This document shows, piece by piece, positions 14,357 to 60,241 of a DNA stretch of 64,000 nt (position 1 is the stretch's first letter; every line of letters starts with the position of its first letter). This DNA is from Eledone cirrhosa (Eukaryota). The stretch is from the NCBI GenBank assembly GCA_964016885.1, contig OZ024740.1:155248001-155312000 (forward strand). The letters run 5' to 3'. The notes beneath the pieces are model-generated. The model had not been told where the DNA came from. It did not search any database and saw only the letters and a list, made by a program, of their open reading frames with translations. The position numbers and the translations under genes were made by a program.

Positions 14357-16476
14357 TTCTACACACACTACCAGCCCACGTCTGCAGCTCAAAGGAAGTC
14401 TTGGAGCGACTACACCATCTGGCGCCCAACACCAGAAAGGACAACGGTTATGCCTTCAGTCTTGATGTGGTCGCCCTTTATACCTCCGTACCAGCATCCC
14501 CAGCTGTCGACCTGTTGACCGAACGAGTCCGAGCATCTAACTTACACTGCTTCGAACTCACACACACGGACATCCACCAACTCCTCTCCTTCGTTGTGGA
14601 TAATGCACTCTTCAATTTCCTCGGCCACACGTACAAACAAATCTCTGGGCTACCTATGGGCTCTAGTCTGTCCGGCATACTTGCGATCTCGTACATGGAC
14701 CACCTGGAACGCAAGGCACTCAATACCTGCCAACCCAACGCCGTCGCCTTCTACTCCAGATACGTTGATGATATCCTGATACTTACTTCTTCCCGGGAGA
14801 TGGCGAATGAAATTCACCAAATCTTCAACGATACTGACCAACACATCGATTTCACCATCGAACACCCAGGAGAAGACGGGTCACTCGCCCTCCTCGACTT
14901 CCGTATCAACATCTCGGAAGAAGGAGACATAAACACCACTTTCTACCGCAAAGCAGCGTGCAAGGACTTATTTGTGCATTATAACTCAGCCCTCCCCAAC
15001 AACGCTAAGAGAGGCTATGTCCTAAATGAACTGACACGGATCACTAACAGATGCAGCGACCCGATGGGTGGTCTCACCCATACCACGCAATTCCGTAATC
15101 TACTCAGATCTAATGGTTATCCCAAGCGACTGATTAACGGAATTAGAGACCCCAGACCCAGTAGACTGACACCCACTAGAAAACTTAATATTAGCAGGTG
15201 CTTCTTTAAAATCCCCCACCTGAGTGAATATACCATGAACGCCATCCGCAGGGCCATACGGACGGAGGGACTTGACATACATTTGGCCCACACAGGACCT
15301 TCGCTGCGAAGATGCCTCTCCAACAAACCCTACGAGGCAGATGGGACGTGTTCCCTCAGCAACTGCCCGATACGGGGGGCAGATTGCCTACGCACCTATG
15401 TCGTATATAAGATTCAATGCGATAAATGTAACAAGTTTTACATAAGTAGCACCATCCGACCCCTACATGTTCGTATCAAGGAACATATCAACACCAACGC
15501 ATCTTCCTTCCGTAAACATATCCTTAAATGCGGAAACCCACAGGGTAGACCCTTGGTCACAGTCCTAACGACTGAACGCAGCATCGGATCCTTAAGGATA
15601 AAGGAAGCACTTGTTATTAAGAACCTCAGACCCCCACTTAACAACCGGGCTGAGAGAAATGAGCTGACATGGCTAACTTAACCATAATGACCATTCACAG
15701 CCTACGGCCTGCTATCTTCACACACACGCACGTATATGCATACCCATACGCATGCACACACACTTCTATATTTTACACGCACACATGTTTTTACAACCTA
15801 CCACCTTTCACACCCTTTGATTTCCAGCTTCTACAGCCCACTATCTTTCACACACAAACGCACTCACACATATACACACACAGTTACACACACACATGTA
15901 TACCCATACGCTTACACACACACACATCTATATTTATACACGCACACATATTTTACAACCTACCACCTTTCACACCCTTTGATTTCCAACTTCTACAGCC
16001 CACTATCTTTCACACACACACACACTCACACATATACACACTTACACTTATACACACACAGTCACACACACATATATATTTACATACACATATCTTACGG
16101 CTTTCACACGCTAACGCACCCTCTTGATTTAACCCATTTGGTCAGTAGCTTTTGCCACAGCTTATCACGCGCACGCACATTCTTTCCTTCGTTTAAATTT
16201 TAAATATTTTTCTCCCCATAACGGCATTCCTGTCTTAACGACATCACCACTTTCTCCGCTTGGCCTGTTTTCCCCCCTTTTGGAACTTTTCCCCCGTTGA
16301 TGGGCGTGAGCCCGAAATATTGGGATTAAATCTCTACTACGGTAACCCTTCTACCTTTGTTTTGTTTTCATCTTTGTCTCTCTCAACTTTCACTTTCACC
16401 TGTTTTTCCTATCTATATTTCACTTCCTACCTCGAGATTTCCCTTTGCATTGTTGTGGCTTTCTTAAATACGTATG

Positions 16477-16480
<4 letters not shown>
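14357..16480 (+). mobile_element. Penelope-like element (RT plus C-terminal GIY-YIG, Naiad-like), 5'-truncated, in (TA)n
   Basis: ORF to 15681 has SLDVVALYTSVP, GLPMGS, RYVDD, Cys knuckle CSLSNC and VVYKIQCDKCNKFYISST (YIG changed to YIS). CA-rich 3' region with an internal duplication, then pLTR. Confidence 0.93.
16290..16325 (+). ncRNA. Non-canonical minimal hammerhead-like motif in PLE pLTR
   Basis: TCCC-CCGTTGAT-GGGC(GTGA)GCCC-GAAA-TATT-GGGA. Topology matches a type I hammerhead, but the core differs from CUGANGA at positions 4 and 6. Confidence 0.55.
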
Positions 16481-16511
<31 letters not shown>

Positions 16512-16516
<5 letters not shown>

Positions 16517-16853
16517 GGCACATGACTTAGTGGTTAGAACATTGGCCTTGAAATCGAAAGGTTGTGAGTTCAATTCTCAGACCGGGTGATGTGTTGTTTC
16601 CTTGAGCAAGACACTTTATTTCACATTGCTCCAGTTTACTCAGCTGTAGAAATGAGATGATAGGGACTGGGGTCCATATCATTCCACTGCAAAGTGGCCG
16701 TGCAGGTGCCACGTAAAAAAAAGCACCCACCACTCACTGTAAATGAGGTTGGTGTTAGGAAGGGCATCCAGCTGTAGAAATCAAGCCAAAATCAGTTCCT
16801 GTCCCACCCTTGCAAGCAGGGAAAAAGCGGAAGTAAAATGAAAAAATGAAATG

Positions 16854-16855
<2 letters not shown>
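16512..16855 (+). mobile_element. tRNA-headed CORE-SINE with RTE-derived 3' tail (also 44330-44676, 46535-46920, 53352-53685, 58205-58327 minus)
   Basis: A/B boxes (TTAGTGG...GAGTTCAATTC), CORE-like CCTTGAGCAAGACACTT...CAGTTTACTCAGCTGTAGAAATG, and a tail shared with the RTE-A 3' UTR. Confidence 0.88.
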
Positions 16856-16884
<29 letters not shown>

Positions 16885-19839
16885 TATTTATATATGTATG
16901 TGTGTAATTTAGTTGCCACGAACAATACATCCCACAGTACATATATACTGCAAGAATGCTTGCAGTATATATCATACTTAAAATATAGTTTGGCTTGGCA
17001 TCAGAAACAGGAGACTGCTTTCTTTAAAAAATCTCATCCAACCCATGCAAGTATGGAAAAAGCAAACATGATGATGATGATGATGATGATAATGATAATA
17101 TAGAAATATATCAAAAGGAATCCCCAGATTATGAACAATATATATAAAGATATCAAATAAATGCATCATAAAATATGCATACATATTGCATAGAATAAAT
17201 ATATTAGCAAATATATCTGTCTATATATATATATTTATCTCATATCATAATATAAGATAAATATATTATGAAATATATCCTTATCTGTATGTTATGAAGT
17301 AAATATATTAAATACAGTGTAAGACTTCAATATAAAATATTTTTATTATCTAATATCTATTTCTATATCCTAAGAAATATATGTATTGCAATATATATGT
17401 AGATGTATATTATATGAAATAACATATATTTTGAAACCAGGAAATACTGTATTAAATTTGAATGCGTGAGTGATGTGCAAGTGTTTACATGCATGAATAT
17501 ATGAAGTTAAATATATATATGTTAATGAACGTGTGAGTGTGCTTGTGAATGTATGAATGAATGTATGTAGATGAATATACATATGTCAGTAAATGTATAT
17601 ATGTAGTTATGTTATCAGAGGTTGTGAATTGGCAGAGGCATTAGAATATTGGATAGAATCCTTTTTGGTATTCGTTCTGCTACTTTGCACTCTCTGAGTT
17701 CAAATCCCACTGAGATCAACTTTACCTTTCATCTTTTCAAGGTTCATAAAAAAAAGTAACATTCCAGTAATGGGACCATTGCATCCTCTGTATATTTTTC
17801 TCATCTCTCTACCACTCTTTCAACTTCTCTGTAAGAAATCAGCTGTGTTCAAACCTGGAGAGGGAATGGACTCTACCAGGTTTAAAGTGCCCAACACGTG
17901 CCGTACATCACAACAGTTCCCCTATGACTCCATCAGGAGTCCATTGATACAGCTATGTTATCATAAACCCAAATCCTAAATACTTCCTAAATGGTACATT
18001 AAATTACTGATTCATATCTCGCTAAAACCATACATACCAGACTCAAAGTTAAGGGTAGGAAACATTCTTATTTGATCAAGTTACATACAAGATATCATTT
18101 TTCTGATATAATTTTTCAGACTTTTTTTTTACTGCTTAACCAGAGAGAGAAATTCAGTGCCTCTGTCCCTTTATTTTTTCAGGGCTTCCAACATTGATGG
18201 GAGGAAAGGAGAAAGTTTTCCTTAAACCAGAGACCTGGCTTAAGTGTTTACAATAGAATGATTTCTGCTAAAGTCATCCAACGACCAGGAGGTGGTGTTA
18301 AACTATGTGGTAGATTAAGTCTGCCACCCAAAGAATTCAGAATGCAAAGACCAAGGTATCCCATCTGTGGCTCTAACAAGAGCTGGAACAAATGCCACAA
18401 TGTATTTTGTCTTACACTTGACAACTCTGTCAATTCTCTTTAGAAATAAGAGATTTTTTCATATTGCCATGATAAAATGTCCCTATCCAACTCTGTAAAG
18501 TGGTAGTGCCTACCCTATAAGCTGGCAGTGGTAGTGCCACAATAAAAAAAACACCCAGTTCACATTGTATGGTGATAGTGCTGGTGCTACAATAAAGGCA
18601 CCCAATCCAAGCTGTAACTGTGGAAGCACGGGTAACATGACAAAAGCCCCCAATTCACCTTGTAATTGTAGTAGGGGCAGAGTCATGATACAATGCTTCC
18701 AGTACACACTATAAAGTAGCTGGTGTTATGAAGGGCATCCAGTCAGAGAAACCAAGACACTAATGAAGCATACAGGCAAAACATGGTCTCCTGACCATTC
18801 TGTACGTGACAGCTTCTCTAACCAATGTAAGAAAAAAAAAAAATAGACGTTAAACAGTGGTGGTGGTGGTGATAATGATGTTGATGATGTTGACACAACA
18901 TTCATGCAAATAACCTAATACTACTTTAAAACAGAATTAGTTTCTCTTCATAATCCTATTTGTTTTGTCTGTTTTTTAAAAGCTGAGTCAGGGCGCAAAG
19001 GGCAGTGCAGTGTTCATGACTCTTGACTCTTTTCAGGATTTCCTAGTTAGGTAACAGGGAAGGAAGACAATATCCTCAAACCAGAGACATAAATCGAATG
19101 TTTGCAATAGATAGCACTCTCTGCTTATTTGCACCCAATTGCTAAGTGGTAGTGATAAAACAGGTGCTGAATTAAGTTTACCACCCAAGTAGGCCATATT
19201 AGGATTTGAAATCAGCATGCAAAGAACCAAATCAAATACCATAAGGTATCAAGTTTGACACTCTAAAAAATTCCTCCAATCCATAGCACTGGAGTGGTGC
19301 TTGATTTTAGTGACCCCGGAATGATGAAAGTCATGTTTGACATAGGCAAGACTTGATCTCAGAGTGATTGCAGTGAGGTGGGATGAATATCAGAAAGCAT
19401 TTTGTTTTATGCTCTAACACCTATGCCAATTTGCTACCTATTAAATTTCTTTTTAGGGCATAAAAGATTTTTTTTTCTTTTCATTATTTATATCACTACA
19501 ACATTTATGCAAACATACTTAAGGTGAGTGTAAACAACCTAATTCTGCTTTGGAACAAAAACTGGCTTCTCCTAATAACCTAAATGTAATTAATTCTTTA
19601 TATTCCCAGTCAGTCAGTTTCAGTTCAACAGGTGTATTTGTCTACTGAAAATAAAGTTGATATTCATACAAAGGCATACTTTGATCTATTGTAAATATGT
19701 ATCAAGGGAAAGTTGTTGATGTTGTTTAACCCCATGTCAGCACTAATGATGCAGTCATGTAATCAAAAGCCTTTCTGTATTTTTAAATGTATCCAGGACT
19801 GCATAGGAACGGGTATTCTGTGTATCCTGGGTATTCAGT

Positions 19840-20200
19840 CATTTGAACACAAGTGCTACAAATGGCTGCTACACTTGCATCTTATGCCAGATCTTTGTCA
19901 GATAGCAAGTCACCAAATGTCCTGGCAGACAAGACCACGTTCTGTTATAGGGAAAAGATGAAAGCTTGCTTAGTATCAACAGGTATGCACCCTTGTCCAA
20001 AACCATACTCCAGCTCCAGAGCACAGTTAAAGGAAGGTGAGGAAGAGGTAAATAGAGAAAACCCTGGTCCAAACACGTCAAGGAAGGACTGGACATATCT
20101 CAACAACATAGAAGGATCACTAGCAATTGCTGACTGCCAACACATCTAGAGTGTCACCCCAGACATTAGCTGCATCAGTTATGCAAAGATGATGATGACA
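19840..20200 (+). mobile_element. Old degenerate RTE 3' fragment (different subfamily)
   Basis: Traces of TIL..TVKGRxGRG and KDWT, (GAT)n tail. Confidence 0.55.
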
Positions 20201-20400
20201 TGATGTAATGCTTTTTTTCCCTTTTATTAAGACAAAATGGTGTGCTATTTCTATAGATTAGAGCAACTCTATAGAGGCTTGCTTGTTGGCACAGAGTTCT
20301 TTTGAAGAAAGCAGTATGTTCTGAGAGAAAGCTTGCTGTCTCATATAAAAAAAACGAACTGCAATATTATAATATTATAATATAATGAATATAATGAAAA

Positions 20401-20750
20401 TATTGTGTACAGTGCTCAGGTGCACTACAACTCATCAAAAGTATATGTATAGTACATAGGGTAATGTACAAATGTCAGGAAAATGAATAGAGCATGAGTC
20501 ATGATATACACATGCGTGTATGTGTATGGAAGGGGGACATCAGGTGTAGTTTTGGCGAATTCCGGGAAGCATGAGGGTTTTAAAGGATGCAGTGTCTCGG
20601 CAGCTAACAAATGACGCAGGCAGTTTGTTCCATGCTTCAGCAACTCTAAGCGTGAAAAAATGTTTCTGAAAGTCATGGGAGCTGTGCTGTTTTCTGACTT
20701 TGTAGGCATGTCCACGTGTGTTAGACACATGAAGATCAAAAAGGTGCTCA
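20401..20750 (-). mobile_element. CR1 LINE 3' fragment
   Basis: TRGHAYKVRK..FFTLRVAEAWNKLP. Same family as 49398-51395. Confidence 0.9.
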
Positions 20751-21095
20751 GTGGAAGTCCAACATTTTATGAAAACACTTCAGCTCAGTGTGTGTTATAG
20801 TAATTACCGGTATATGTGGTTTATAGCAATGTGAGATTATAACAAAATTATAATATATGAAAATAATATCAAAATAGTATGGTATGATAGATGTTTTGAT
20901 TTTGTTTTAGGTTTTATTGCTTAACTGTATGGATATTTAAACAAAGAGCTAAACAGATAGGTTGTTAGACAGAGAGAACGATAGACAGATCAACAGGCAG
21001 ATAAATAGACAGTTCTGCAGAAAAAAACATTAGTCACTTTGCATGAAGTATATCAATTTGAATGAAGAATCAGTGATAGAATAAGACACACTTAC

Positions 21096-21174
21096 CTAAA
21101 TGCTCTGTGAACTGCCTGATTGGGAGAAGGGTCGCCAGGAATACACTGGCACAGCTAACAAACACCATTTCAAT
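21096..21174 (-). CDS. Exon D of the NEF1-like membrane protein gene (79 nt, phase 0 to 1)
   Basis: Acceptor TGTCTATTTGATAG, donor TAG|GTAAGT. IEMVFVSCASVFLATLLPIRQFTEHL(G). Phases match both neighbours. Confidence 0.88.
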
Positions 21175-21203
21175 CTATCAAATAGACAAGTCTCAAGTTA
21201 ATG

Positions 21204-21258
<55 letters not shown>

Positions 21259-21798
21259 CAGTAGTAGTAGTAGTAATGATGATGATGATATGTGCATGTG
21301 TATCCACTGTTCTATTAACTATCATTCATACTTAAATATTTTTGAAAAGATGACATGGGATAGACACATCTGAAATGTTATTGATCATAAATCTGCTCAA
21401 TTAAATTTCCACAGGGAGAAAACAGCAACAATCTCAACATTTCAACACTTGCAATGCCATATGTCTAATGAAAGATACTGCCTATAGTGTTCAAATCATT
21501 TTTTAAATAATCAAAGATTTGGAGGGATTTAGTAATATAACCAACTTTCTCATTATTAAGGTCCTTGTGTAAATATATGATGGAAGGTTTTTAAAAATAT
21601 ATATAAACATTATATAAACAAACAGTTTTGTATCATAGAATTAGAGGCAATCTCAGGCAGTTTGTTATAAAAAGGGTTACAAGAGCTCTTGTGAAGGTCA
21701 TAAGATACAGGCTCTCTTCTTAAGACTAACTTATTCCAACACTAACAAAAGATAAAAAAAAAGAAAGATAAAAACAAAGACAAAAATAAACAACATAC

Positions 21799-21991
21799 CA
21801 GGAAACTTGCTGAGAAAATTGTGAGATCCTTTGACAAGATTGAAGCGGAGAAGAATAAGAATATTGGTGAAAATATGTATAAGAATGTCATGAGCCCTGT
21901 TAATAAAGGATCTATTATGTTGTCTTCTTGTCCCATGTGCATCCGGAAAGATGAGGCTGTAGGAACTAAAAATAACTGGAGAAGACCAAAC
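21799..21991 (-). CDS. Exon C of the NEF1-like membrane protein gene (193 nt, phase 2 to 0)
   Basis: Acceptor TTTCTTTTCCAG, donor CTG|GTATGT. FGLLQLFLVPTASSFRMHMGQEDNIIDPLLTGLMTFLYIFSPIFLFFSASILSKDLTIFSASFL. Confidence 0.9.
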
Positions 21992-22012
21992 CTGGAAAAG
22001 AAATAATAATAT

Positions 22013-22670
22013 TAATTGTTTCTACTTTTGGCACAAGGCCAGCAATTACCCAGTGCATTACTGGTACTTTATTTTATTGACCCCGTAAGGATGAAAGGCA
22101 AAGTTAGCCTCAGTGGGATTTGAACTCAGATCATAAAGGGACATAACTCTATGCTTCAAAGCATGGTGTCCGACTCTCTACCGATACTGCCAATCCACCT
22201 ATATATAAGAAATAATAATATTAATAATAGTTTTTTATATAGGCACAAGGCCAGCAATTTTGGGGGAGGGGAAAGTCGATTAAATCAACTCCTCCAGTAC
22301 GTTACTGGTACTTTATTTTATCAACCCCATAAGGATGAAGTGCAAAGCTAACCCCAGCAGGATTTGAACTCAGAACGTAAAGGGTCATAACTCAATGCTG
22401 CAAAGCATGGTGTCCAACATTCTATCGATTTTACCAATCCACCACCCTAATAATAATATTAGCCATAACAATAATTGTTTCTACTTTTGGCAGAAGGCCA
22501 GCAATTAACCCAGTGCATTACTGGTGCTTTATTTTATCGACCCCACAAGGATGAAACGCAAAGTTAACCTCGGCCGGATTTGAACACAGACCGTAAAGGG
22601 CCATAACTCTATGCATCAAAGCATGGTGTCCGACCCTCAACCAATACTGCCAATCCACTGCCCTATTACT
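22013..22670 (-). mobile_element. Three tandem Meta-type SINE copies abutting the exon C acceptor
   Basis: Three consecutive copies at 22013-22200, 22225-22445 and 22470-22665, with (TTA)n tails. Confidence 0.88.
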
Positions 22671-24120
22671 AATAATAACAATAATAGTAACAAGAACAAA
22701 GAAAATAATGAATAATAGAAACTGGTAGTATTGATAGTGCATCAGACAAAATGCCTTGCAGTATTTAGTCACAACTTTTTATAGAATCAAACCCATGACC
22801 TTATAATTGTGAGTGTAAAATCCTAACCACTAAGCTATGTGCCTTTACATGCAATTTTAGAGATGGAACAGTCAGTTATATCAACCCAGTATTTGGCTGG
22901 TACTTTATGATATTAGCCCAAATAGAAGGATGAATGACCTCCCTTGGTAACAATGAAGAGTGTTCTAGCTGTTTGATCAACAGGATAGCCAGCTCATGAA
23001 ATTAACATGCAAGTAACTGAACATTCCACTGACAAGCGCACTCATGATGTAGTTTTCAGGGAGATTCAGCATGTCACATTGTGTGATAAGAATGACCATT
23101 TGAATTCCAAGTATAACTCGTTTTTTTTCCAGCTGAGTGAATTGGAGCAACATGAAATCATGACATACTGCTGAGAGTCAAACTCATGACCTTATATCAT
23201 AAGCTGAGCACACTGACCACTAAGCCACCCAATTTCATACACACACACAGACATTCTCTCTCTCTTTCTCTCTGTCCAGCCAGTTTCATAGAATTATTCA
23301 ATCACCTGCCTCTGGCTGGTTTTCTGGGCAGGAAAACATTATAAAAACAATTACAACAAAAGCAACAACTAAAATAATCAATGATATTTTTAGATTAAAA
23401 TAATGTTCAATGTAGTTTAAACAGTGCATGTAATTGGAGAGTATTCTATTCTGTATTCTGTAGATTTGAATTTGATTTATAGAGAGGGAGGGGAGAAAGA
23501 GATCAAGAGTAAAACAGAGATATCTAAAGAGCAAGAATGGAGATGGAGGGAGAGAAAGAGGGTTTGAAGCAGAGAGATCAAAGAGAGATAGATGGAGAGA
23601 AAAATGGTGAGGGAAAATAAGAAAATTAGTTGTGATAATTGCAAAATGTAACTGCAATGCATATCTAAAAAAATCAAGAAAAAAAAATCCTCTCCAAAAA
23701 ACAGAAAAAAATTAAAAACAAAACAAAAACAACACACACACACCACAAACATAATTTAGATTTTTAAAAATGGCATGAATTAAGGTAAAACGGACAGCTA
23801 AATTATTTCAGAGATTTATTCTTCATTTAAAAAAAAAAAAAAATTCTTCTGTTCAGCTATGAAGAGCGAAATATTTAGCAATGTTTTTTGACTTTCCTTT
23901 TTTTTTTTTAGATGGGGTGGAATGATGTACAATGGGAGGGGGGAGGGGGGATATGTTATTTGTTAAATAAAGCAAAGCTAACAACAACAAAGTGTAAAAG
24001 AAAGAAAAAAAAACTCTTCATAATAAGAAATTAAAAGAATGTGGCAGTGGAAACAGAATAAAATAAATAACAACACTGAGTGATGTAAAATTTCAATAAG
24101 GTGTAGGTAAGGCTGCCTGA

Positions 24121-24349
24121 TTAACCCTTTAGCATTTAATCCGGGTGTATCTGGCCATAATTCTCTTACCTCTTTCAATTCAAACCAGCCATAACCGGCT
24201 GCTCATACTGATGTTAAGGTGTTGTTCTCAAAATAAATAATATCAAAATCCCGTAGATTCCATATTATATGAAATAATTATGAGAGGTAAAGCCTTTACT
24301 GTGAAAATATAATGGTAAATATAGGGTAATGTAAATGCTAAAGGGTTAA
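24121..24349. mobile_element. piggyBac-like MITE with TTAA target site
   Basis: TTAA-CCCTTTAGCATTTA ... TAAATGCTAAAGGG-TTAA. More copies at 39994-40519. Confidence 0.8.
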
Positions 24350-24486
24350 GGAATTTACTTCACAACCACATGGTTTTGAGTTCACTTCTACTACCTGGCA
24401 CCTTCGGTAGGGTCTTCTTTTTTAGTCTTGCTTTGACTAATGCCTTGTGAGTGAAATTTGGTAGACACAAAATGGAGAAGCCTGTC

Positions 24487-24518
<32 letters not shown>

Positions 24519-30752: not shown

Positions 30753-31446
30753 TGGGGGGTAGATATCTTGTCTTTAATGCATAGAAATATCCGAGACTCC
30801 CAGCAGACAACTGATGAGGAAACCCCGCCCCCCGTTTTTACTTTCTTCTTATTCTTATTTTTAAGCCTAACTTAACTAGCAACTACACACCCAGTCCTAT
30901 TCTCTATATATTTTATCATGTTTTGCTGTGACCCATGTTCTCTCTCCTTCTACCTACCTATTTTGTTGCTATCTACTCTTCCCCCTCTTTCTTTCTCTCC
31001 CTCTCACTTTCACTCAACCTCTCTCTTCTAGCCATCTCATTGTTTCCCTCGCCTGACCCTCTAGCAGTTCTTTTCTCATTAACACTCACTGGGATCAGAC
31101 GTGTCTTTTCGCTCGTCCACACAATCTAGAACTTATGTTCAGTAATTGTTGTGGACTTTAATTTTCTCTCTTCGAATCGCTCACCCACTCTTTGGTTTGT
31201 TGTTTCCCATTTTTTTTCTCATTTCTCCTTTTTTCCCTTCTGTTATCCTATATTTTCTTTCTCTCCCTCCTTCGTTTTCCCAATAACTTACCTAGTTATT
31301 GAACGTACTGGGGGTAGATATCTTGTCTTTAATGCGTAGAAATATCTGAGACACCCAGCAGACAACTAATGAGGAACATCCCCCTCTTGCTTTCTTATTT
31401 TTAAGTATACCTTATCTAGCAACTACACAGCCAATTCTCTTCACAC
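30753..31446. mobile_element. Non-coding element with ~140-bp direct repeats in (TA)n, probable tandem PLE pLTR remnant
   Basis: TGGGGGTAGATATCTTGTCTTTAATGC... at 30753 and 31309. Pyrimidine-rich interior. Confidence 0.55.
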
Positions 31447-31495
31447 ATATATATATATATATATATAAATTGAGCATATATATATATAAATTAAG

Positions 31496-33680
31496 CACAT
31501 TGAGCCAGAAACAGGAGGTATTCAAGATTGCGAGGCAGTGTGTCAGAGATAGTTGTGATGTCATTGGAGAGAAGTGTATCCGGAATGATAAAGGTGAGCT
31601 TGCCCTCACAAGTGCTGAGAAGAAAGATGCATGGAAGAGTCATTATGATAGATTACTAAATGAGGAGAATGCATGGGAAGAAGAGACCCTACCCCACGTA
31701 GACCCTATAGAGGGACCAGCAGTACAAGTCAGCGGCAGCGTAGTAAGTAAGGCAATCAGAGATATGAAGATAGGGAAGGCAACCGGTCCATCGGGTATAG
31801 CTGCCGAGATGCTGAAGGCATCTGGGTCTGTAGGTCACACTATAACCACACGTATCGTTAACCAGGTAATACTAGAGGGGGCCATACCAAAAGATTGGTG
31901 CAGTAGCATCATTGTCAACTGCTACAAAGGTAAAGGCGATGCACTAGATAGAGGAAACTATAGAGGTATAAAGTTGATGGACCAGGTCATGAAAGTAACA
32001 GAAAGAGTTATAGCACAGCTGATTAGGGACCGGGTGAATATAGATGAGATGCAATTTGGGTTTGTACCAGGGAAAGGCACCACTGATGCCCTCTTCCTTG
32101 TGAGGCAATTACAGGAAAAGTACCTAGCTAAAAGTAAGCCACTCTACTTGGCATTTGTCGACCTTGAGAAAGCCTTTGACAGAGTTCCACGTGCAGTAAT
32201 CTGGTGGGCTCTTAGAAAACTAGGAGTAGATGAATGGCTTGTGAAAGCGGTACAAGCCATGTATAGGGGAGCAGTCAGCAAAGTTAGGATTGGCAATGAG
32301 TATAGCGAGGAATTTAGCGTACAGGTTGGGGTCCACCAGGGCTCTGTTCTTAGCCCTCTCCTGTTCATCATAGTCCTGCAGGCAATAACGGAGGAGTTTA
32401 AGACCGGATGCCCATGGGAACTCCTGTATGCTGATGACCTCGCACTCATAGCTGAATCTATGGTAGAACTAGAGAATAAATTCCAAACCTGGAAGCAGGG
32501 ACTAGAGAGAAAGGGCCTCAAAGTCAACATGACAAAGACTAAGGTCCTTGTAAGTAGACGAGAAAACAGAACCCAGATCCCCTCAGGGAAATGGCCTTGC
32601 TCAGTATGTAGGAAAGGTGTAGGTAGGAACTCCATTCTCTGCCCCAAATGCAAACAATGGGTACACAAGAGATGTAGCGGGATCTCAGGAAGCTTAATTA
32701 AGAATGTAGGATTCACATGCAGCAGCTGTGCTGAAACAGCAAGCAAACAGCCACAGGAAACAAGTACCACCAATCTCTGGGAGGGCCCTGTAGAAACAGT
32801 AGACAGCTTCTGCTACCTAGGTGACCGAATTAGCAACGGAGGTGGGTGCTCAGAAAGTACAATAACTAGGGTAAGAACGGGATGGAAGAAGTTTAGGGAA
32901 CTACTACCACTGCTAGCTGCAAAAGGCTTCTCCCTCAGAATGAAAGGCAGACTGTATGATGCGTGTATCCGAACAGCGATGTTGCATGGTAGTGAGACCT
33001 GGGCGCTGAAGGTGGAAGACTTACGTAGATTAGAGAGAAACGAAGCCTGCATGCTCCGATGGATGTGTAACAGTAATATACGTGAACGACAAAGCATAAA
33101 GGAATTGAGAGAGAGACTGAGCATAAGAGGAATCAAATGCTGCGTGCAGGAGAGGCGGTTACGCTGGTATGGACATGTGATGCGTATGAAGGATGACAGC
33201 TGCATAAAAAGGTGCAGAGCACTAGAAGTTGATGGAAACCGCGGAGTGGGGAGACCCAAGATGACTTGGGATGAGGTGATAAAAGCCGACCTTACCCAAC
33301 TACACCTCTCAAAGTCAATGACACACGACCGTGACTTCTGGCGTCACGCAGTAATACAGGGTACCCGACCTCCCATGGGTACATGCTGAAGCATATAAAC
33401 AATATGCCCCCCCCCCACCGCAAGGTGGCCGTGGAGGTGCCACGGCAAAAAAAGCACCCAGCCCACACTGTAAAGTGGACGTGTAGGCGCCACGTAAAAG
33501 CACCCAGCACTCACTGTAAATGAGGTTGGTGTTAGGAAGGGCATCCAGCTGTAGAAATCAAGCCAGATCAGTTCCTGTATGAGCAAGGCATGGTCAGCCG
33601 ACCAGACACTGCCCACAACAGGACTACCCGTCTAACCCATGCTAGCGTGGAAGAACGGACGTAAAACGGTGATGATGATA
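31496..33680 (+). mobile_element. RTE family A LINE, 5'-truncated with uninterrupted RT-PHD-C-terminal ORF
   Basis: ORF 31470..33389 has QFGF, DLEKAFDRVP, QGSVLSP, YADD and RLRWYGHV..GRPK..W. No endonuclease domain. (GAT)n tail. Confidence 0.97.
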
Positions 33681-34657: not shown

Positions 34658-35845
34658 GTGTCCCCGCTGTTCGTTGTTTTGAATATCTGCCTTTCGGTAG
34701 AAGTTGCAGTGGATCCCTCCCTGTTCCGTGATGTTGATTCCGCCTGCAGGGACCTGTTCGTCCACTACAAGTCTGCCCTCCCTAACACTGCTAAAAGAGG
34801 ATATATCACGAACGAGATCACGCGAATTAAAAACAGATGCAGCAATTCTGCGAGTGGTGTCACTGATACCAAGCGATTCCTCAAAGTGCTGGAGACAAAC
34901 AGGAACCCTGCCTCACTCACAGACAGAATAGGAGACACCAGACACAAGAGACAGAGAGGCACCCAAGGCAAGTGCTTCCTTAAAATACCACACCTGAGCG
35001 AGAATACCACCAACGCTATCCGCAAGGCTATACGGAGGGCCCCTCCCTGCGAAGATGCCTCTCCAGGAAACTCGGGAAATCAACTGACACGTGTTCCCTC
35101 AGAGACTGCCCGATGCACCATGTGAACTGTTGCCTATGCACATACGTCGTGTATAAGATAGAATGTAACAAGTGCAACCACTACCATATAGGTAGCACAA
35201 TCTGGTCGCTACACATTCGGATCAAGGAGCACATTAACACCAGGGCCTCGTCTTTCCGGAAACACACAACCAAATGAGGAAACAAAGACGGAAGGCCCAT
35301 TGTCACAATTCTAGCGACGGAAAGAAACGTCGACACATTACGAATCAAGGAAGCACTTTGGATCAAACGCCTAGGGCCACAAATAAATAACCGATCCGAG
35401 AGAAGCTAAATGAGGTGGTTAAGTAAACAAACGATACAACAACACACGCACACACACACACACACGCGAGACAGCAACACACGCACACACAGTAGTATTC
35501 CACCATACGAACATACAACACTGCTAATACAGACGAATGAGGCAACAACACACGCACACACTCACACACAAGCGAGACAACAACACACACACACACACAG
35601 TAACATTCACCAAACAGGCAGAGAATACTACCACCACCACGCACTACTCAACACTGCTAATACTGAAACCAGCACAGACAGACAATACAATGGATTGACA
35701 GCTAACGCCACCCCACTCCCACAATTAAAAGAACTATTTCGGCCGCCGACCTATACTTGACCGACCCCATTTCACGCGCACGCGCGCTCTGCTGAATACC
35801 TCAGATATTCGAAACAACAAACAGCGGAGGACACGTTTCGCACCA
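34658..35845 (+). mobile_element. Penelope-like element, 5'-truncated with inverted 5' pLTR piece, GIY-YIG remnant
   Basis: DLFVHYKSALP..KRGYI and VVYKIECNKCNHYHIGST..RIKEH. 34658-34690 is the reverse complement of 35802-35835. An internal deletion near 35035 shifts the frame. Confidence 0.9.
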
Positions 35846-38631: not shown

Positions 38632-38632
38632 G

Positions 38633-51395: not shown

Positions 51396-52829
51396 CTTAT
51401 GTAAAAGACATTTACTTATGTAAATGTTATTTACTGACCTCCCCCAGCTGGCTTTGGTCAAGTAGACTTTATGATCAAAGACATTCAAAACATGACCTCC
51501 CCATCCTTTTTACAAGAATTATCTACCTCAAACTACATTATCTATGATTTTTCTTCTTTTTACGACAGTGGGATGTGATATGAGGGAGATTTGGCTGATA
51601 TTTTTGAATCCAGGAAAATAGTCACAGAAGCTACTGAATATAACATGATTTTTTTCTCTCATTTTTTCTCCCAGATACATGTAATGCTATAATATAAATT
51701 GTTATTTTGTACAAATCATATATTGTTTGCCAGTTAATAAGTGACTTAAAATAGTATTTGTTTAATTACTTTAATTATTATTATTATTTAATCGTAAACA
51801 AATCTATTTCAAATAACAACACTACAGATATTTAAAAACGGAAAATGAAGGGAAGGGCAAGGGCTCTAGTCACAGAAAGATGGGAAGGGGAAGAGGAATG
51901 ATGATGGCTTCTGAGCCTAGGGCAGAGTGATGTTGGGGCTGTGCCCCTCGGGCAAGACCACATTTATGGTATTTAAGTGAAATTTGTGATTTTTGTTTGT
52001 GATTTTTTCCTAACCAAAACTGACATTTCCCTCTGAGACTTTATTACTGTTCAGTGATATTTTTAGCAAGTGAAATGACCTCACAGAGTCCCTTGTTGGC
52101 TCATAAAACCATTTTGTTCAATGACATAGTGCAAGAAAGAGGTGCAGAACCCATAAATTTGTAGGTCTTCTGAAACAAATGAACTCAAACTTGATTTATA
52201 TCATTTTTTTATCATTCTCTGATAGCAAAAATCTAGTTTGTTTCACACTGTGAAGGTGTTTCAAATTTAGCACTACTGTCTTAAGCATTGAAGCTGTAAA
52301 GATGTCAATAATAGACAGCTGATGACAGGGCAGGTTTTTATTTCTATTCATCATTCCATCCTTTCTGCCTTTTTTCAGCTTCTATGTACATTTTCTTAAA
52401 AATTCTGTTTGTTGCTAGAATCTCTGTACATTAAAAAAGAACTCTGTTACTTTCGAAAACATTATGCAATTTCTGTTCTCTCCTTATGTTCATTGTGTGT
52501 GTGTGTGTGTGTGTGTTGTTTTTACATCCACTTTCCTATGCTGGAACTTGCTGAGGCTATGTTTTATGGCTGGATGCCCTTCCTAACACCAACTCTTATA
52601 ACAGGAATAATAGAACAAAGAAGAAACAGAGAGGAGCAAGAATAGTCATTGAAGTCATAGAATGTGTGATGAATGAGCTTTGATGGTTATATAACCATCT
52701 GGTTACTAAATCAACCAAGAAATGGGTTAGTTACCCCAATAATATAACAGAAGTGAAACTAAAGTTGTACGTATGTTTTTCATTGGCAGCATAACCCTCC
52801 CAAAGTATAACACAATATATATATACATA

Positions 52830-54512
52830 CAGGTAAAATTCTGTTATAACGAATACCATTATAACAAATGTTTCAGTATAACAAAATTATTTTCAATCCC
52901 TAGCCACAAGCTTATTAAAACAGTGACAAAAGAATTTTGTTATAATGAAATTCATCACGAATATTTCAGTACAATGAACGGAAACTGAACTCCAAGCAGC
53001 CAAAATTCCTCACTATAACAACAACAAAAAAAACAATTTGGACACACTCATTCTCGCAGAATTGTCAACTAACCAAAATACTTGAACCCAAAATTGCTGC
53101 TTCAAATTCCCCACATGGTATTTTTTAGCTCAATCCAAAATTACTAATTTTTTTTCAGAACTGAATTGTTCATATGATTCTTCAACTGATTATTCTTACA
53201 TACCAATGCATGGATAAAAGTATCTTTCCGATTTGTAGATCTTTGTTATTACTCATCATTTAAATTCCTTAATATTCCAAATTTCAAATGAAAGAAGATT
53301 ATTCAAAAGAACATATCTGAAACACATACACACCTTTATATATATATATATGGGGGCACATGGCTTAGTGGTTAGAGCATTGGCCTTGCAATCGAAAGGT
53401 TGTGAGTTCAATTCTCAGACCGGGTGATGTGTTGTTTCCTGGAGCAAGACACTTTATTTCACATTGCTCCAGTTTATTCAGCTGTAGAAATGAGATGATA
53501 GGGACTGGGGTCCCTATCATTCTACTGCAAAGTGAACGTGTAGGCGCCAAGGCAAAAAAGCACCCAGCACTCACTGTAAATGAGGGTAGTGTTAGGAAGG
53601 GCATCCAGCTGTAGAAATCAAGCCAGAATCAGTTTCCGTCCCACCCTTGCAAGCAGGGAAAAGCGGACGTAAAATGATGATGATATCATCATCATCATCA
53701 ACGTTTAACGTCCGTGTTCCACGCTTGCATGGGTTTGGACGGGGGTATTCCCACTTGAGGCAAGAGTGATTGTCTTGCTCGCATAGGACTGTCTGGCAGG
53801 TTTTCTACAGTTGGATGCCCTTCCTAACACCAACCACATTTACAGTGTGGGTCTGGAAGGTTTTTACCGTGTTGCCTACACGGCCACATTACAGCGTGGA
53901 CAGTGTGTTTTTTTGTCGTGACACGATCTCATTTGTTTCGGCCTGGATGGTGTGGCACCAACATAACTTTACATAGGAGGGGGTGGTGTGGATGGGGTGG
54001 GGGTGGTGGGATGGGGGTGTATTTTGTTAGAGATGCCTACTGGCTGTAGTAGGTTTTACTATGTATTTAGGTAAGGCGGGTCTTCTCTATTACTGAGTAC
54101 CGCCAAAGGTCTCGGTCCAGTGACATTGTCTTGGAGAGGTGTATATATATATATATATATATATTTATATCATCATCATCATCATCAAAAAAAAAATATA
54201 TATATATATAAAATTATTATTATAACATAAAATACATAACTAAAAAATGATTTTAAGTTTTTGATGGTTTTTTATGCAAGTTTATAATATGACAGAAAAC
54301 AAACTAAGGAAACATATGTGAAATACATATTTAAATTTTATTTCATGATACAATCTTATTACAGGTATTGTTTCATTCATTTATTGTTTGATTTTTAAAT
54401 AAATAACAAACAAACACTCGATTTGTTTCAGTCAATCTTGTTATAAAGAACTTTTCGTTACAACAAATTTTTTTTAATACCCCATGAATTTCGTTATAAC
54501 GGAATTTCACTG
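52830..54512. mobile_element. pogo/Tigger-like non-autonomous DNA transposon with nested CORE-SINE and RTE-B fragment
   Basis: TIRs CAGGTAAAATTCTGTTATAACGAA / TTCGTTATAACGGAATTTCACTG, TA flanks. Confidence 0.75.
53685..54142 (-). mobile_element. RTE family B 3' end, tail-to-tail with CORE-SINE
   Basis: Reverse complement of 12567-13040. Confidence 0.93.
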
Positions 54513-54560
54513 TATATATATTGGCAGCATAGCCCTCCCAAAGTATAACACAATATATAT

Positions 54561-54603
<43 letters not shown>

Positions 54604-56257
54604 AATGATACATAAAATAGGTGCAGGCATGGCTGTGTGATTATGAAGTTCACTTTACAACCACGTGGTTGTACATTGGGTTCTCTTCCACTATGTGGCA
54701 TCCTAGATAACTGTCTTCTACTATAGCCTTGTATATATGTGTATGTATGTGTGCATGTCAGTCACTATAAACATCATATCAATGCAATTTATTAAGCTTT
54801 GTAACAACAGTTGTTTATGTCCCCCATAAACAATATGATCCCATCACCACTACCACCGCCACCTACAACAACAACAACAACAAAATATGCACCAACACAA
54901 ACACAAACAAAACACATGACCTTATAGTGACTCCCCCAAAAAACTCTCATTTCTTTTTAATTCTTGTCAATTCTTTAGAATACTATTGACCACCTTGCTT
55001 TCAAATACCCTGACATTTTCCTTAGTGAGATATACATATCTCTTCCACCACACACCCCTTCATTTTGGCCACCAGCTACCACTAACCACCACACATAACC
55101 ACATCTCATTTCTTAACTCAATTTCTGAAACCCAACTACCCAAACTTCACAGAATACAGGCTCTGGATCTCTCATTTGGCATATATACACACACACATAC
55201 CGATAGACAGTCACACAAGCTTATACACACATACAACTCAAACACACACTCATACATGAATACATACACATATACACACATGCATGTATATACATATAAA
55301 CACACACAAAAAAAACACACATATACACACTCCCATTGATGATACACAACATATACACACAGAAATGAAAAATAAAACCAATGATATGCACATACATAAC
55401 AGTACCAATGATAGATTTTGACCCTCCCTCCGCCTCCACCTATGCTAAATTACTTTCCTGCATACCTCAACCATCATCATAAAGCTCTTCTTTTTTCCCC
55501 TCAGTCTTCCAGCCTCTTTACCATGCTCTTTTTTAATGAAGTAGTAACGTCCAATACATTGAAACATTTATTTTCCTTTTCCAGCAAGCATAAAATTAAT
55601 AAGACTTTGTGATATTGTATCTGTTTTCATTTTATTTATCTTGAACCCTAACACAACCAAAATGTAATTAATAAACAGCGACCAGGAAGATAATTTCTGA
55701 TTTTTCTAAAGCACCCTTGATAATGGATGATAAATCAGAAAAATCTGGGGAGTAATAAATTACTAAGGTAAACATTTAGTCATTCTTTTTCTTTTATTTT
55801 CCTCTTTCTCCCACTTTTTGCCTTCTACCTCATCTCTACCCACTTTCACTTTCATATTCTTCAATGCTTTTAGAAGAGGTTCTGAAAGTGGCGCGCTATC
55901 ACCCAGGGAGGTGGTGATAGTGGTAGGTGGGGGAGGGGGGTAGAGGTGCTATAATAGTATATAAAATACTAAATGATACACATTGGCAGTATCGGTAGAG
56001 GGTCGGACGCCATGCTTTGACGCATAGAGTTATGGCCCTTGCCATTCTGAGTTCAAATCCCGCCGAGGTTAACTTTGCCTTTCATCCTTACGGGGTCGAT
56101 AAAATAAAGTACCAGTAATGTACTGGGTAATTGCTGGCCTTGTGCCAATAGTAGAAACAATTATATATAAATACAGTAAATTATAAAATATATAATATCT
56201 ATTTATATATACATAGTATATTATTTATTATATATAAATTAATGATTTTATTTATTA

Positions 56258-56884
56258 CTAGCAGTGGTACCCGGCGTTGCACGGGATAAGGTATTTTGGA
56301 ACGCGGGCCGCCAACAGACCTAATCGTGGAAAAACTGCATGTCTGGACAATATGTAAAGAAAATAAACTGAATACTTATGGCTGGATAATCTTTAAGATT
56401 TTCCTCGATGAAGCAGGAAAAATGCAGTATTTCACCTAATGCGGGCCCTAGGGGATCAAGAAAATGAATTTTTCTTATGTACATAATATGCCTCAAAATT
56501 TCGGGAAAATCGGCTAGACGTAACGCTTCAAAAGATCCCTAAAAAGCTGAAAAAATGAAGTTTTTCACCTAATGCAGGCCCTAACCCATAAAAAAGTTGG
56601 ATTTTCTTTGCTCACGGTATGAAGACGAGACTGACTAATACATAGCTACAATTTCAAGGAAATTGGTCTGATGTAACACCTAAAAAAACCCCTTAAAAAG
56701 CTGGAAAAAAAATTCACCTAATGCGGGCCCTAGGGGATCAAAAAGTTGAATTGTGCATAACACTCCCTGAAACATAAGTAATACACATGTAAAGTTTGAA
56801 AAAAATCGGTTGGGTACTTCTCGAGTTTTAGGGATTAAAACTCACACACACACAGACAGACATCCCCAGTTTTATATATATAGA
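56258..56884 (-). mobile_element. Non-autonomous Helitron inside the hAT-like MITE
   Basis: 5' TCTATATATATAAAA, 3' hairpin CCCGTGCAACGCCGGG plus CTAG, three internal ~140-bp repeats. Confidence 0.8.
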
Positions 56885-57673
56885 TATATTATTTACAATT
56901 AGCATGTAGGCAGGTCTCTCTGGAAATAGGTGTGGGGGACACTGAGGGTATTACATGGCTGTAAGGGGGGGGGGGGGGGGCAAAAGGTTTGAGATCCTCT
57001 GCTTTAAAGCAAACTACTACACCTTATATATATATCATCATTTTATGTTAGATTTTCCATGCTTGCATAGGATTAATAAAACTTCAACTAATTGCAAGCC
57101 TTCACATCTGTGAGGTTCAGCATCTTGAGATCACCTCTCAGAACTTCTGTTCAGGTCTTTCTTGGCATATCATCATCCGCACACATCACATGCCTATACC
57201 GGTGCAGTCCCACCCACAATATGTATATATATATATATATAATATGTATTTTATCTTTTAACTTTAATTTTATACCTAATTGTGTATGGTTGATGATATG
57301 TTTAATCGATTTCCACGTGCTATTGAAATGGTGGGTAAATATTCTATAGCTGTTGATCGCGAAGATGGCTGTTGTTTATTTATCTATTATTTCTTCATAG
57401 GTGCCTTTTAATCTTATAGTCTGGTTTAATTGGTTTTTTGTGTGGTTGATTATGCTAATTGGGAGAGGAAATGGTGTATATATCTTATCAAATGATTCTA
57501 TGTACATAATTTATAGTATATATATCATCAACATCATCATCATATATATATATATATATGGCAACCCATCTAACCCATGCTAGTGTCGAAAATGAACATT
57601 AAATGATGATGATGATATATATATAGATACATATATATATATATATACATACACACACACATATATATATATA

Positions 57674-58080
57674 TATATTAATAAAAGGAATTCAAACTTT
57701 GTCTGATTTATTCATTTTATTTATAATCCTTTAAAATTATAATGGTATTAGAATGAAATAGTATGGTAGAATATTAAATGTTAAGTGTTAATTGAACAAG
57801 TATTTTCATGCTTTCACAATCTTCAGGTTCATATTCTGTGGTGACAGTCAAGTTTGCAATTTTCGCAAACTTGACTGTCACCACAGAATATGAACCTGAA
57901 GATTGTGAAAGCATGAAAATACTTGTTCAATTAACACTTAACATTTAATATTCTACCATACTATTTCATTCTAATACCATTATAATTTTAAAGGATTGTA
58001 AATAAAACGAGTAAATCAGACAAAGTTGGAATTCCTTTTATTAATATAACCTTCTATACACAATCATACACACCCATGTA
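57674..58080. mobile_element. Foldback PLE pLTR remnant, ~183-bp arms, 7-nt loop
   Basis: Near-perfect palindrome centred at 57858-57864, with a hammerhead-like motif in each arm. Confidence 0.82.
57891..57929 (+). ncRNA. Minimal hammerhead-like motif (mirror copy on minus at about 57793-57831)
   Basis: TGAAC-CTGAAGA-TTGTGAAAGCAT-GAAA-ATACTT-GTTCA. Stems II and III are imperfect. Confidence 0.5.
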
Positions 58081-58323
58081 TATTTATTTATATATATATA
58101 TATATAAAGGAATGATCGACTTTCGTCAAATCGGACCGAGGGAACAATGTTTCCGTTGGTCTTTCCAATTGCTAATACTATCTATCGGTCGCAACTCCAG
58201 GTAGAAGGAGCAACGTGAAATAAAGTGTCTTGCTCAAGGACATAACGCATCGCCTGGTTCAGGAATCGAACTCACAACCTTACGATTGCGAATCCAATTC
58301 TCTAACCACTCAGCCACACGCCT

Positions 58324-58355
<32 letters not shown>

Positions 58356-58358
<3 letters not shown>

Positions 58359-59587
58359 GGTGCGGACGATATTTGTTCGCAATTTTCAACTGCTAATTTT
58401 ATGCAAATTTTTTTTTACTTCCATTGTCACTCTTGTCTTCATAAAAACAGTGACTATATTTCCATTATTTATTTTCAGAATAATTGATTATGAATAATTT
58501 TGAACCTCCAAATTTGTGGAAGAGACATTTGTCCTCCGCGCCGGGAGGACAAATAAGGAAATTTTAGACTTTCTCAGCGTCAGCAGGAAAATGGTGGAAA
58601 AGGTCAGAAAAGAATTAGAAGATTCTGGATTCGACTACGAAGCAACATCAAAGAGGAAAACACATGATCGACGATCTGACACCTTCAGGATGTCCGAATT
58701 CGTCGCTGAAGTTCAGGATATCATCAACAATGAACCTAGCAAGTTGATGCATGCCATTACAAGGGAGAAAGGCGTGGATGAAAAGCTCATTAGGCTGGTG
58801 GTACATGAAGACATTCGCTACGTTTCATACAAGATGAGGAAAGGACAATTTCTGTCAAAGGCGATGCAAGAAAAGCGACTGAAGCACGCAAAGAAGCTGA
58901 TCAACAAGTTGAAACACCCACTGGAGCCAGACATGCTGTGGTTTTTCTCCGACGAGAAAAACTTCTGCCAAGACCAGAAGATCAACTCCCAGAACAACAG
59001 GTGGCTCGCAGTCTCATCCAAAGACGTGCCCAGAGTCATGCAGACATAGTTTCCAGCGACAACATTGGTCTTAGGTGTCGTCAGCAGTCAAGGTGACATC
59101 ATGCCACCTCACTTCTTCCCTGAGGGCCTCAAGCTGAACACCGATGGCTACATCCGTGTGGCAGCATGACTCAGTGTCCTGCCATACCAGCCGAAAGACC
59201 CAAGCCTGGCTGTCAGAGAAGTTCGTCGACCACACTTCACCTGAAATCTGGCCTCACAGCTCGCCTGACTGCAATCCCCTCGACTTCTTTGTGTGGGGCG
59301 CAGTGGAACGAGACACCAACAGATCTAGCTGCAATACGAAAGACGATCTGAAGGCCAGAATCACAAGTGCCTTTAGGGGCCTAAGTCGGGGGACAGTGAC
59401 GAAGGCCTGTAGCCAGTTCCAAAGCCACCTTGAGGCCGTCATCAAAGCGGGTTTATCGAGTGAGATCGAAAGAACAAGTCATGAAGACAAACTGACCCAA
59501 GTTTGATAAATAAATCTTAAAAAATAAAACTACTGTGTTATTTTTTCCTAGATAGTAATCTTGCAAACAAATATCGTTCGCAACCTG
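58356..59587 (+). mobile_element. Tc1/mariner DD37D (maT-type) transposon, defective
   Basis: TIRs CAGGGTGCGGACGATATTTGTTCGCAA / TTGCAAACAAATATCGTTCGCAACCTG in (TA)n. WFFSDEK; QHD followed by 37 residues, ending NPL, then D. Stop at 59047 and an internal deletion. Confidence 0.93.
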
Positions 59588-59601
59588 TATATATATATAT
59601 A

Positions 59602-60241
59602 TGAGAGTATTGAAGTTTGCTTGAAGCATTGTGGAACAATAAGTAAATATCTTTAAGTCGTTTGGAAGCCTCGACAATGCAAATGGGTAAATCTCCAGGT
59701 AACAAGGTCCGGTGGTGGAGAGAGAGATGTAAGTGGGTGTACGTTGAGATGCGTGGTGTGTATAAGATGTGTGAGATGTGTAGAATGAAGGGAAGAGTAT
59801 AAAGGATAAAATAAAAATAACAACACAAGAGAGAGTTACCTTGGGAGAGATTTAATAGTCCCTATATATTTCGGATTCACATCCATCAACTGGGGTTTTT
59901 TTCCGGGGTGGGGGAAAAGGTATTCAAAACAACAAACAGCGAAGGACGCGTTCCGCACTTGTCCGACAGACAACCTTTTCCCCCACCCCGGAAAAAAACC
60001 CCAGTTGATGGATGTGAATCCGAAATATATAGGGACTATTAAATCTCTCCCAAGGTAACTCTCTCTTGTGTTGTTATTTTAATTTTATCCTTTATACTCT
60101 TCCCTTCATTCTACACATCTCACACATCTTATACACATCACGCATCTCAACGTACACCCACTTACATCTCTCTCTCCACCACCGGATCTTGTTACCCGGA
60201 GATTTACCCATTTGCATTGTCGAGGCTTCCAAACGACTTAA

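Follow-up and report, generated by a model that had tools for sequence, protein, structure and literature searches.

A hammerhead-derived fold with altered core residues U4 and A6 in terminal repeats of Nematis-like Penelope elements of Eledone cirrhosa

Judged by sequence comparison, a motif repeated in the terminal repeats of Penelope elements (PLEs) in a 64,000-nucleotide stretch of the Eledone cirrhosa genome (the window) is a hammerhead-derived fold under selection, in which core positions U4 and A6 have changed. This conclusion is drawn from relatives with canonical or A3-U8 cores, together with core positions, paired stems and a palindrome that were kept despite neutral divergence.

The motif and its host elements

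The earlier note had claimed an identical fold at three sites, and all three carry it, with core, stems, GAAA and palindromic stem III (Table 1). At the family A site, stem I is formed by TCCC (16290-16293) and GGGA (16322-16325), the core CCGTTGA starts at 16294 and is followed by an extra T, stem II is GGGC/GCCC with a GTGA loop and then GAAA, stem III is ATAT, and H17 is T16321. At the plus-strand family B site, stem I is CCC (59999-60001) and GGG (60032-60034), the core CAGTTGA starts at 60002, again with an extra T, stem II is GGAT/ATCC, stem III is ATATAT, and H17 is A60031. The CCC/GGG stem I described previously thus fits site B (3 bp), but site A has one base pair more (4 bp). Stem II shows the two compensatory pair changes noted before, and the cuts predicted after 16321 and 60031 agree with the hammerhead register. 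The mirror copy of the family B motif sits in a 283-nt inverted repeat. The flanks had been called diverged, which is borne out for the 120 nt upstream of the motif, where A-B similarity is at shuffle level, but not for TTAAATC and a donor-like GGTAAC site downstream of the motif or for an upstream hairpin, all common to A and B. The hairpin is predicted in families A, B and C, with one base-pair change between A and B.

Table 1. Motif sites, predicted structures and element parts in the window
Feature	Positions	Strand	Remarks
Family A hammerhead-like motif	16290..16325	+	core CCGUUGA-U (U4C, A6U); predicted cut after 16321
Family B hammerhead-like motif	59999..60034	+	core CAGUUGA-U (U4A, A6U); predicted cut after 60031
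Mirror copy of family B motif	59860..59895	-	predicted cut between 59863 and 59862
Predicted small C-loop hairpin immediately upstream of family A stem I	16270..16285	+	prediction only; predicted in B and C too
Predicted upstream hairpin of family B	59976..59995	+	prediction only
5'-truncated family A PLE copy (RT, Cys linker, GIY-YIG, 3' UTR, terminal repeat)	14356..16490	+	96.9% identity over 2136 nt to full-length L031; RVT_1 match
Open frame remnant (RT core, C-x4-C-x6-C linker, C-terminal GIY-YIG endonuclease)	14371..15681	+	
Predicted GT-AG intron, 5' UTR part of family A terminal repeat	16342..16436	+	donor- and acceptor-like sites common to A and B
Older family B/C remnant (endonuclease part and 3' UTR), ending before the motif	34742..35843	+	
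Inverted arm of family B terminal repeat, with ~40-nt tail	59599..59921	-	
Direct arm of family B terminal repeat	59918..60250	+	
Predicted GT-AG intron of family B	60055..60201	+	no spliced joint in contigs

Full-length copies of families A and B carry the motif in both terminal repeats, flanking the RT-endonuclease ORF. An intact 878-aa ORF lies between two motif-bearing repeats in three copies (L031, L188 and L189), which places the variant in recently spreading elements. The host PLEs have a C-terminal endonuclease and, by their sequence features, appear to be Nematis-like. The Naiad-like label given to them earlier had to be dropped: GIY-YIG is C-terminal in both L031 and the window ORF, and the alignment reads PSDKG, not DKA. 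Since the hosts are not Naiads, the gap of hammerheads in that group is not filled. They resemble Naiad elements (PMC8557442) in having copies among (TA)n repeats and inverted and tandem structures, but their domain order is reversed (in Naiads, GIY-YIG is N-terminal, before the RT) and they have DKG where Naiads have DKA. With the Nematis clade (supplementary alignments of PMC8557442) they share an RT, a short Cys linker and then a C-terminal GIY-YIG, and, as compared by eye only, the blocks SDKGxEF, xKTHK, IRPI and GLxMG..L..ILAI.YMD. The linker, C-x4-C-x6/7-C, is followed by the VVY-x-I-x-C of the GIY-YIG domain; it differs from the CX2-5CxxC of Nematis in that one cysteine of the CxxC is missing. 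Contigs aligned to A and B had no ends at the cut and no spliced joints; these contigs are not expected to show either.

An Rfam scan of the window gave zero hammerhead families among the 100 matches listed (E up to 1), the matches being spurious microRNA hairpins only, and canonical minimal hammerhead copies in the window were also missed. As anticipated in the earlier note, the variant escapes standard motif searches, both CUGANGA descriptors and Rfam.

Family consensus, conservation and covariation

The motif pattern matched 5,562 times in the genome (2759 + 2803), compared to 98 times (35 + 63) for a reversed-pattern control, which argues against chance. In a core-free search for families B and C, none of the 100 listed rows read CTGANGA, so the variant is the family consensus and not decay. 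A conserved noncanonical minimal hammerhead fold in PLE terminal repeats, proposed at the outset, is thereby confirmed as a consensus in thousands of copies. Families A, B and C have C or A at position 4 and U at position 6, and UUGAU is fixed in all three while position 4 varies. Their sister family E has the U4C change only, with canonical U4 in 32 and U4C in 68 of 100 listed copies; CpG decay as the origin of the canonical copies was ruled out, as a control CpG was intact in 98/100. In metagenome relatives, the core at the equivalent place in the element is canonical or A3-U8. In a quick tree, A, B and C grouped with support of 99, and together with E and P0001 with support of 100, within a set of relatives whose cores are canonical or A3-U8. 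Families A and B are distinct, as described, but they are sister families (67% protein identity) and therefore not independent.

Several other matches were rejected. The CCTGC(A/C)GATGGCGG variant family, obtained with a relaxed pattern, lies in apparent coding DNA, which we take to be Helitron-type, and is without the stem III palindrome. Matches to CCAGACGAGGTATC and GCGAAAGATCC were without a PLE protein match and resemble LINE coding DNA, and L037 was discarded as a chance match.

Four-fold sites differed at 148/263 positions between A and B and at 135/204 between A and E. Across about one substitution per neutral site, C3-G8, G5, A9, G10.1-C11.1, G12, A13, A14, A15.1-U16.1, H at 17 and the stem III palindrome were kept; by a rough estimate, the chance that the 11 core positions kept between A and B survived is ~1e-4. 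All 17 parsed motifs have the extra nucleotide after A9, the G10.1-C11.1 pair, an NUH site whose H17 is U, A or C throughout, and a stem III palindrome, of which there are five different versions. Three stem II types and two stem I types occur within the genome. Covariation, which the earlier note had proposed to look for, was present in an alignment of 16 motifs: 98.8% of 160 cells were paired (slid controls, 25-46%) and 8 of 10 pairs had changes on both sides, figures to be read with the caution that the rows were chosen by the motif parser, which inflates pairing. Conservation at the DNA level, as a promoter or endonuclease site, or leftover similarity from kinship, with the RNA fold irrelevant, would be in keeping with the relatedness of the families and with the conserved TTAAAT and donor-like site beside the motif. 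We nevertheless consider this very improbable because of the compensatory stem changes: stems I, II and III change letters yet keep their pairs among A, B/C and E, and the flanks and silent sites are near saturation.

5' junctions of inserted copies

In family A, 12 of 91 5' junctions fell at H17/G1.1, compared to 2.9 expected, making this the top 2-nt window of 56 nt. When family A was pooled over positions 25-43, 18 of 75 junctions were at the predicted cut (8.4 expected; P ~0.001), an approximately twofold excess. The signal was weak in an independent family A subset, with 6/37 (4.1 expected; P 0.22), and 12 versus 6.1 expected for -1 to +1 (P 0.013). Junctions were generally raised over positions 20-37, with the peak at H17 rather than G1.1, and control windows were read by eye only. 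Stalling of the reverse transcriptase at the fold, or microhomology at the G run, could be an alternative source of this pile-up. Family B had no junction peak in the 30 loci scripted per search: of 16 junctions in the first search, none fell at the cut and 3 at -1, and of 13 in the other, none and 1 (138 and 187 matches in total; the remainder of the 100 listed rows was read by eye). Family E had 4 junctions at the exact cut, but it is not a clean control, since only 30 of 185 loci were scripted and the pattern is offset by one base. Of 21 full-length copies, 12 reach past the predicted cut and none starts at it.

For the anole Poseidon element PAc, the single PLE hammerhead known to have been assayed together with its protein, cleavage depends on the presence of that protein and is dispensable for insertion in vitro (PMC11167929). 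A catalytically dead hammerhead might be kept as a structural handle, its junction and palindrome binding the RT-endonuclease protein, pairing two RNAs or influencing the adjacent splice donor. The family B result and the full-length copies that read through the predicted cut are consistent with such a role, as are the damaging effects of U4 and A6 changes in vitro, the U4C majority (68/100 listed) among spreading family E copies and the insertion of PAc without cleavage. However, the residues left unchanged are the catalytic ones (G5, G8, A9, G12, A13, A14 and NUH, with U, A or C at H17 in 17/17), which a handle would have no need to keep in full across ~1-2 substitutions per site, and family A has its junction excess at the predicted cut. 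We therefore regard a dead handle as a serious but unlikely explanation.

Comparison with known hammerheads and a candidate mechanism

The consensus of metazoan PLE minimal type I hammerheads is CUGANGAH-G..C-GAAAN-palindrome-NU-H (Cervera and De la Peña 2014, PMC4209133). The motif has the type I three-stem layout and, like them, lies in a terminal repeat and has a short stem I, an added nucleotide separating A9 from G10.1, the G10.1-C11.1 pair, a stem III palindrome and an NUH site, but differs in having C/A for U4 and U for A6 as a fixed family consensus. The portion of that paper available to us documents the extra U following A9 as a feature of PLE hammerheads, reports U3-A8 as the only core variant and describes canonical PLE minimal hammerheads as themselves slow. 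The PAc hammerhead (PMC11167929) likewise sits in a terminal repeat, at the ORF start or ahead of it, and offers a model for protein-assisted, dispensable cleavage; it overlaps the start codon, and its host is a Penelope/Poseidon element, whereas our motif is found 180-265 nt upstream of the ATG, precedes a predicted intron and has a core changed twice. The same two core positions vary in the viroid U4C and phage Bcep176 A6C hammerheads, described as slow but active (PMC3088659). Those are single changes with loop-loop or pseudoknot support, whereas here both positions are changed (A6 to U) on a minimal scaffold in thousands of copies.

We cautiously favor, as somewhat probable, a slow ribozyme assisted by dimerization and by protein: the terminal-repeat hammerhead of a Nematis-like Penelope lineage with positions 4 and 6 changed. 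Cutting after position 17 would be slow and would affect a minority of the element's transcripts, with the motif probably acting as a dimer and with help from the element's own protein. Two motifs may pair via the stem III palindrome, protein binding may replace the lost U-turn contacts, and cleavage would be a low-level side reaction unneeded for insertion. U4C would have come first and still segregates in family E; A6U would have followed before A, B and C split, and C4A in B/C. Besides the weak points of the junction data, two things speak against this reading: the low activity, without rescue, of single and double CUGA-turn mutants other than the C-G swap (PMC9901934), and a U6-A15.1 pair permitted by A6U, which in folding predictions zips the core with a probability of 0.33 in A and 0.16 in B, although zipped folds of comparable kind occur in canonical relatives. 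More tentatively, and as something possible rather than probable, this could be the first natural hammerhead lineage to cleave without the CUGA uridine turn, with a C(C/A)GUUGA-U core activated by dimerization and its own protein and reached via the visible U4/C4 intermediate of family E; that would imply hidden self-cleaving RNAs missed by all CUGANGA-based searches. We found no report of a U4+A6 double variant in literature whose coverage stopped short of the variants in Lünse et al. 2017.

Although nearly universal, PLE hammerheads are slow, and insertion did not require them in the one in vitro system. The families provide a natural graded series on one scaffold in spreading elements (canonical U4, U4C, U4C+A6U and U4A+A6U), and so a natural test of the purpose of the ribozyme. 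Cleavage by the double variants would mean that the hammerhead core can lose its U-turn when supported by a protein or a dimer, and that ribozymes are undercounted by motif searches; absence of cleavage would mean that the fold is maintained for a noncatalytic role, which would be equally telling for PLE biology.

It seems improbable to us that a re-wired core keeps the hammerhead fully active, with new contacts made by U6, U7, the extra U and the C-loop hairpin upstream compensating for the loss of U4 and A6. In favor of this, UUGAU is fixed in A, B and C although position 4 varies, the predicted hairpin recurs in all three with its base-pair change between A and B, and an A3-U8 core is tolerated in the same clade. 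Against this, a pairwise mutational scan found low activity and no rescue in all single and double mutants of the CUGA turn, the C-G swap excepted (PMC9901934); even canonical PLE minimal hammerheads are slow (PMC4209133), and there is no sharp junction step at the predicted cut.

Motif and carrier elements

The motif was present in the sequence at all three sites claimed for it by the earlier note, and the mirror copy of the site B motif was part of a 283-nt inverted repeat. A pattern count over the 3.0-Gb genome gave 5,562 matches, against 98 for a reversed control. The suggestion that standard searches would miss the motif was borne out, as an Rfam scan of the window reported no hammerhead. 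All 17 motifs had a palindromic stem III, of which there were five different versions, and none had G at position 17; with the extra base after A9, these features match the dimer-type PLE hammerheads in the portion of PMC4209133 available to us. Because the motif departs from the canonical PLE minimal hammerhead at U4 and A6, we classed it as a new variant that derives from this hammerhead and probably functions in the same way. We found no report of the C(C/A)GUUGA-U core in the literature searched; the core is also unmentioned in the available portions of PMC7229834, PMC6765202 and a 2026 retrozyme preprint, and that of PMC11014351 gave no term match.

Hammerhead motifs and other features (window positions, or locus handle and position)
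Feature	Position	Strand	Description
Site A motif	16290-16325	+	U17 at 16321; stem I TCCC/GGGA; core C3 C4 G5 U6 U7 G8 A9 + extra U; stem II GGGC/GCCC; G12 A13 A14; stem III ATAT (hammerhead numbering)
Site B motif	59999-60034	+	A17 at 60031; stem I CCC/GGG; core C3 A4 G5 U6 U7 G8 A9 + U; stem II GGAT/ATCC; stem III ATATAT (hammerhead numbering)
Mirror of site B	59860-59895	-	
Family E motif			stem I CCT/AGG; core CCGAAGA + A; stem II GAGAT/ATCTC; stem III AATT
A3-U8 motifs	L083:2078, L089:2307, L093:2159, L097:1567, L108:1241		same PLE clade, metagenome
Canonical minimal hammerhead	60416-60443	-	another abundant PLE family; CUGAUGA-A, GGGC/GCCC, ACGU; 200 nt from site B
Inverted fragment, third PLE type	60897-61618		CxLC and CxH motifs in its endonuclease end
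Canonical-core hammerhead in that fragment	61547-61584	+	stem III an 8-nt palindrome
Decayed mirror hammerhead in that fragment	near 60966	-	
Further canonical hammerhead families, same genome	L034:260, L039:5866, L045:443, L071:1501		long stem II
Transposase-like frames	58504-59506		directly left of family B inverted repeat
LINE copies	10719-12386, 13152-13979, 31350-33389		RT with PHD-like finger

Three full-length copies (L031, L188 and L189) had an intact 878-aa ORF and the motif in both terminal repeats. The site B family is a sister of the site A family (protein identity, 67%), and there is also a form C, distinguished by a GCGAA loop. Compared with the available part of PMC8557442, the carrier's domain order and its DKG motif led us to reject the Naiad-like identity proposed earlier. 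Its RT blocks and short linker are similar to those of the Nematis rows in the supplement of PMC8557442, a likeness judged by eye.

Conservation of the fold and its relatives

A core-free search anchored on the flank returned 4,056 rows, with some sites counted twice, and the CTGANGA core occurred in 0 of 100 rows among the matches listed, which supports the variant as the family consensus rather than decay. Other PLE families in the same genome have canonical cores (6,930 matches versus 102). Four-fold sites differed at 148 of 263 positions between A and B and at 135 of 204 between A and E, and the upstream 120 nt aligned no better than shuffles; 11 core positions were identical across A, B and E, for which the chance of no change, from A-B alone, is roughly estimated at about 1e-4. 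In 16 aligned motifs, 98.8% of cells were paired and 8 of 10 pairs had changes on both sides, as the claimed covariation of the stems predicts, with pairing down to 25-46% in slid controls; because the rows were picked with the motif parser, these figures lean towards structure. Identical core positions might also reflect DNA-level conservation or leftover similarity, which we regard as highly improbable beside the double-changed pairs.

Family E (L201), found by protein search, is 56% identical to A, and downstream of its motif lie the same TTAAAT and donor-like site as in A and B. Among the matches listed (3,436 in all), position 4 was U in 32 of 100 and C in 68 of 100, and a control CpG was intact in 98 of 100, indicating that both forms are being copied. 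The at least 3,400 young copies segregating U4 and C4 (L234, L240, L201) offer a ready-made paired comparison. Separately, L318, L322 and two more rows are distinct family E insertions sharing one identical junction, with an inverted ORF start joined exactly at the predicted cut.

Of 74 metagenome loci, the flanks were inspected in the closest 22. Five (L079, L081, L085, L086 and L091) had a canonical core at the same place, and L095 had one 5' of the ORF. Five others had an A3-U8 core (AUGANUA) but were minimal hammerheads of the standard kind in all other respects, and four of the five formed one supported clade; the natural core-pair swap described in the available parts of the literature compared is U3-A8 only. 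One had U3-G8, and in the remaining 10 the locus ended early or the motif was not seen. The U4/A6 double change occurred in 0 of these 22, and L130, a distant locus, had U4C. A quick tree grouped A, B and C (support, 99), joined them with E and P0001, another sequence compared (support, 100), and nested them among the metagenome relatives. We infer the order canonical, U4C, A6U, C4A.

Evidence bearing on cleavage

In hammerheads, U4 and A6 are structural, and G8 and G12 serve the chemistry, in part as seen by mutational scanning. Natural U4C (viroid) and A6C (phage) forms are slow but still active, according to the available part of PMC3088659. In a pairwise scan of the CUGA turn, single and double mutants were all low in activity except a C-G swap (PMC9901934, in part); a re-wired fast core, which would accommodate both changes, thus seems unlikely.

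As an indirect test, we asked whether 5'-truncated copies start at the predicted cut (H17/G1.1). Family A had 216 matches, of which we used the first 100; once 9 deletions were removed, these left 91 junctions over 56 nt. Of the 91, 12 fell at the cut, where uniform and microhomology-weighted nulls predict 2.9. With all 67 matches of a narrower search, the count was 13 of 61 (6.8 expected). Restricted to the 37 junctions that were independent of the earlier set, it was 6 (4.1 expected; P 0.22), or 12 (6.1 expected) when positions -1 to +1 were taken together. The pooled junctions gave 18 of 75, against 8.4 expected. Family B had no peak at the cut in the 60 loci scripted. Among 21 full-length copies, none started at the cut and 12 reached past it. 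The junction signal for cleavage is suggestive, in family A only, and reverse transcriptase stalling at the fold would mimic it.

According to the available text of PMC11167929, the anole PAc hammerhead cleaved only in the presence of its own protein. Insertion in vitro did not require this hammerhead, and no reads ended at its cut site. A dead hammerhead kept as a handle is possible, if doubtful: it would suit the family B junctions, and the family A excess speaks for cutting. We lean towards a slow, dimer- and protein-assisted ribozyme that would cut a minority of element RNAs. Stems I and II would fold in the element RNA, two motifs would pair via the stem III palindrome, and the RT-endonuclease protein would steady a core lacking its U-turn; the minority would be cut just ahead of the predicted 5' UTR intron, and most insertions would arise from uncut RNA.

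Other observations

The endonuclease-end motifs of the third PLE type are Hydra-like by published description. We take the transposase-like frames, by resemblance, to be of Tc1/mariner type; Pfam gave no match on them. In run X5, which bears a second organism label, low-depth contigs match the A and B repeats, motif region included, and may represent a related species or carry-over.
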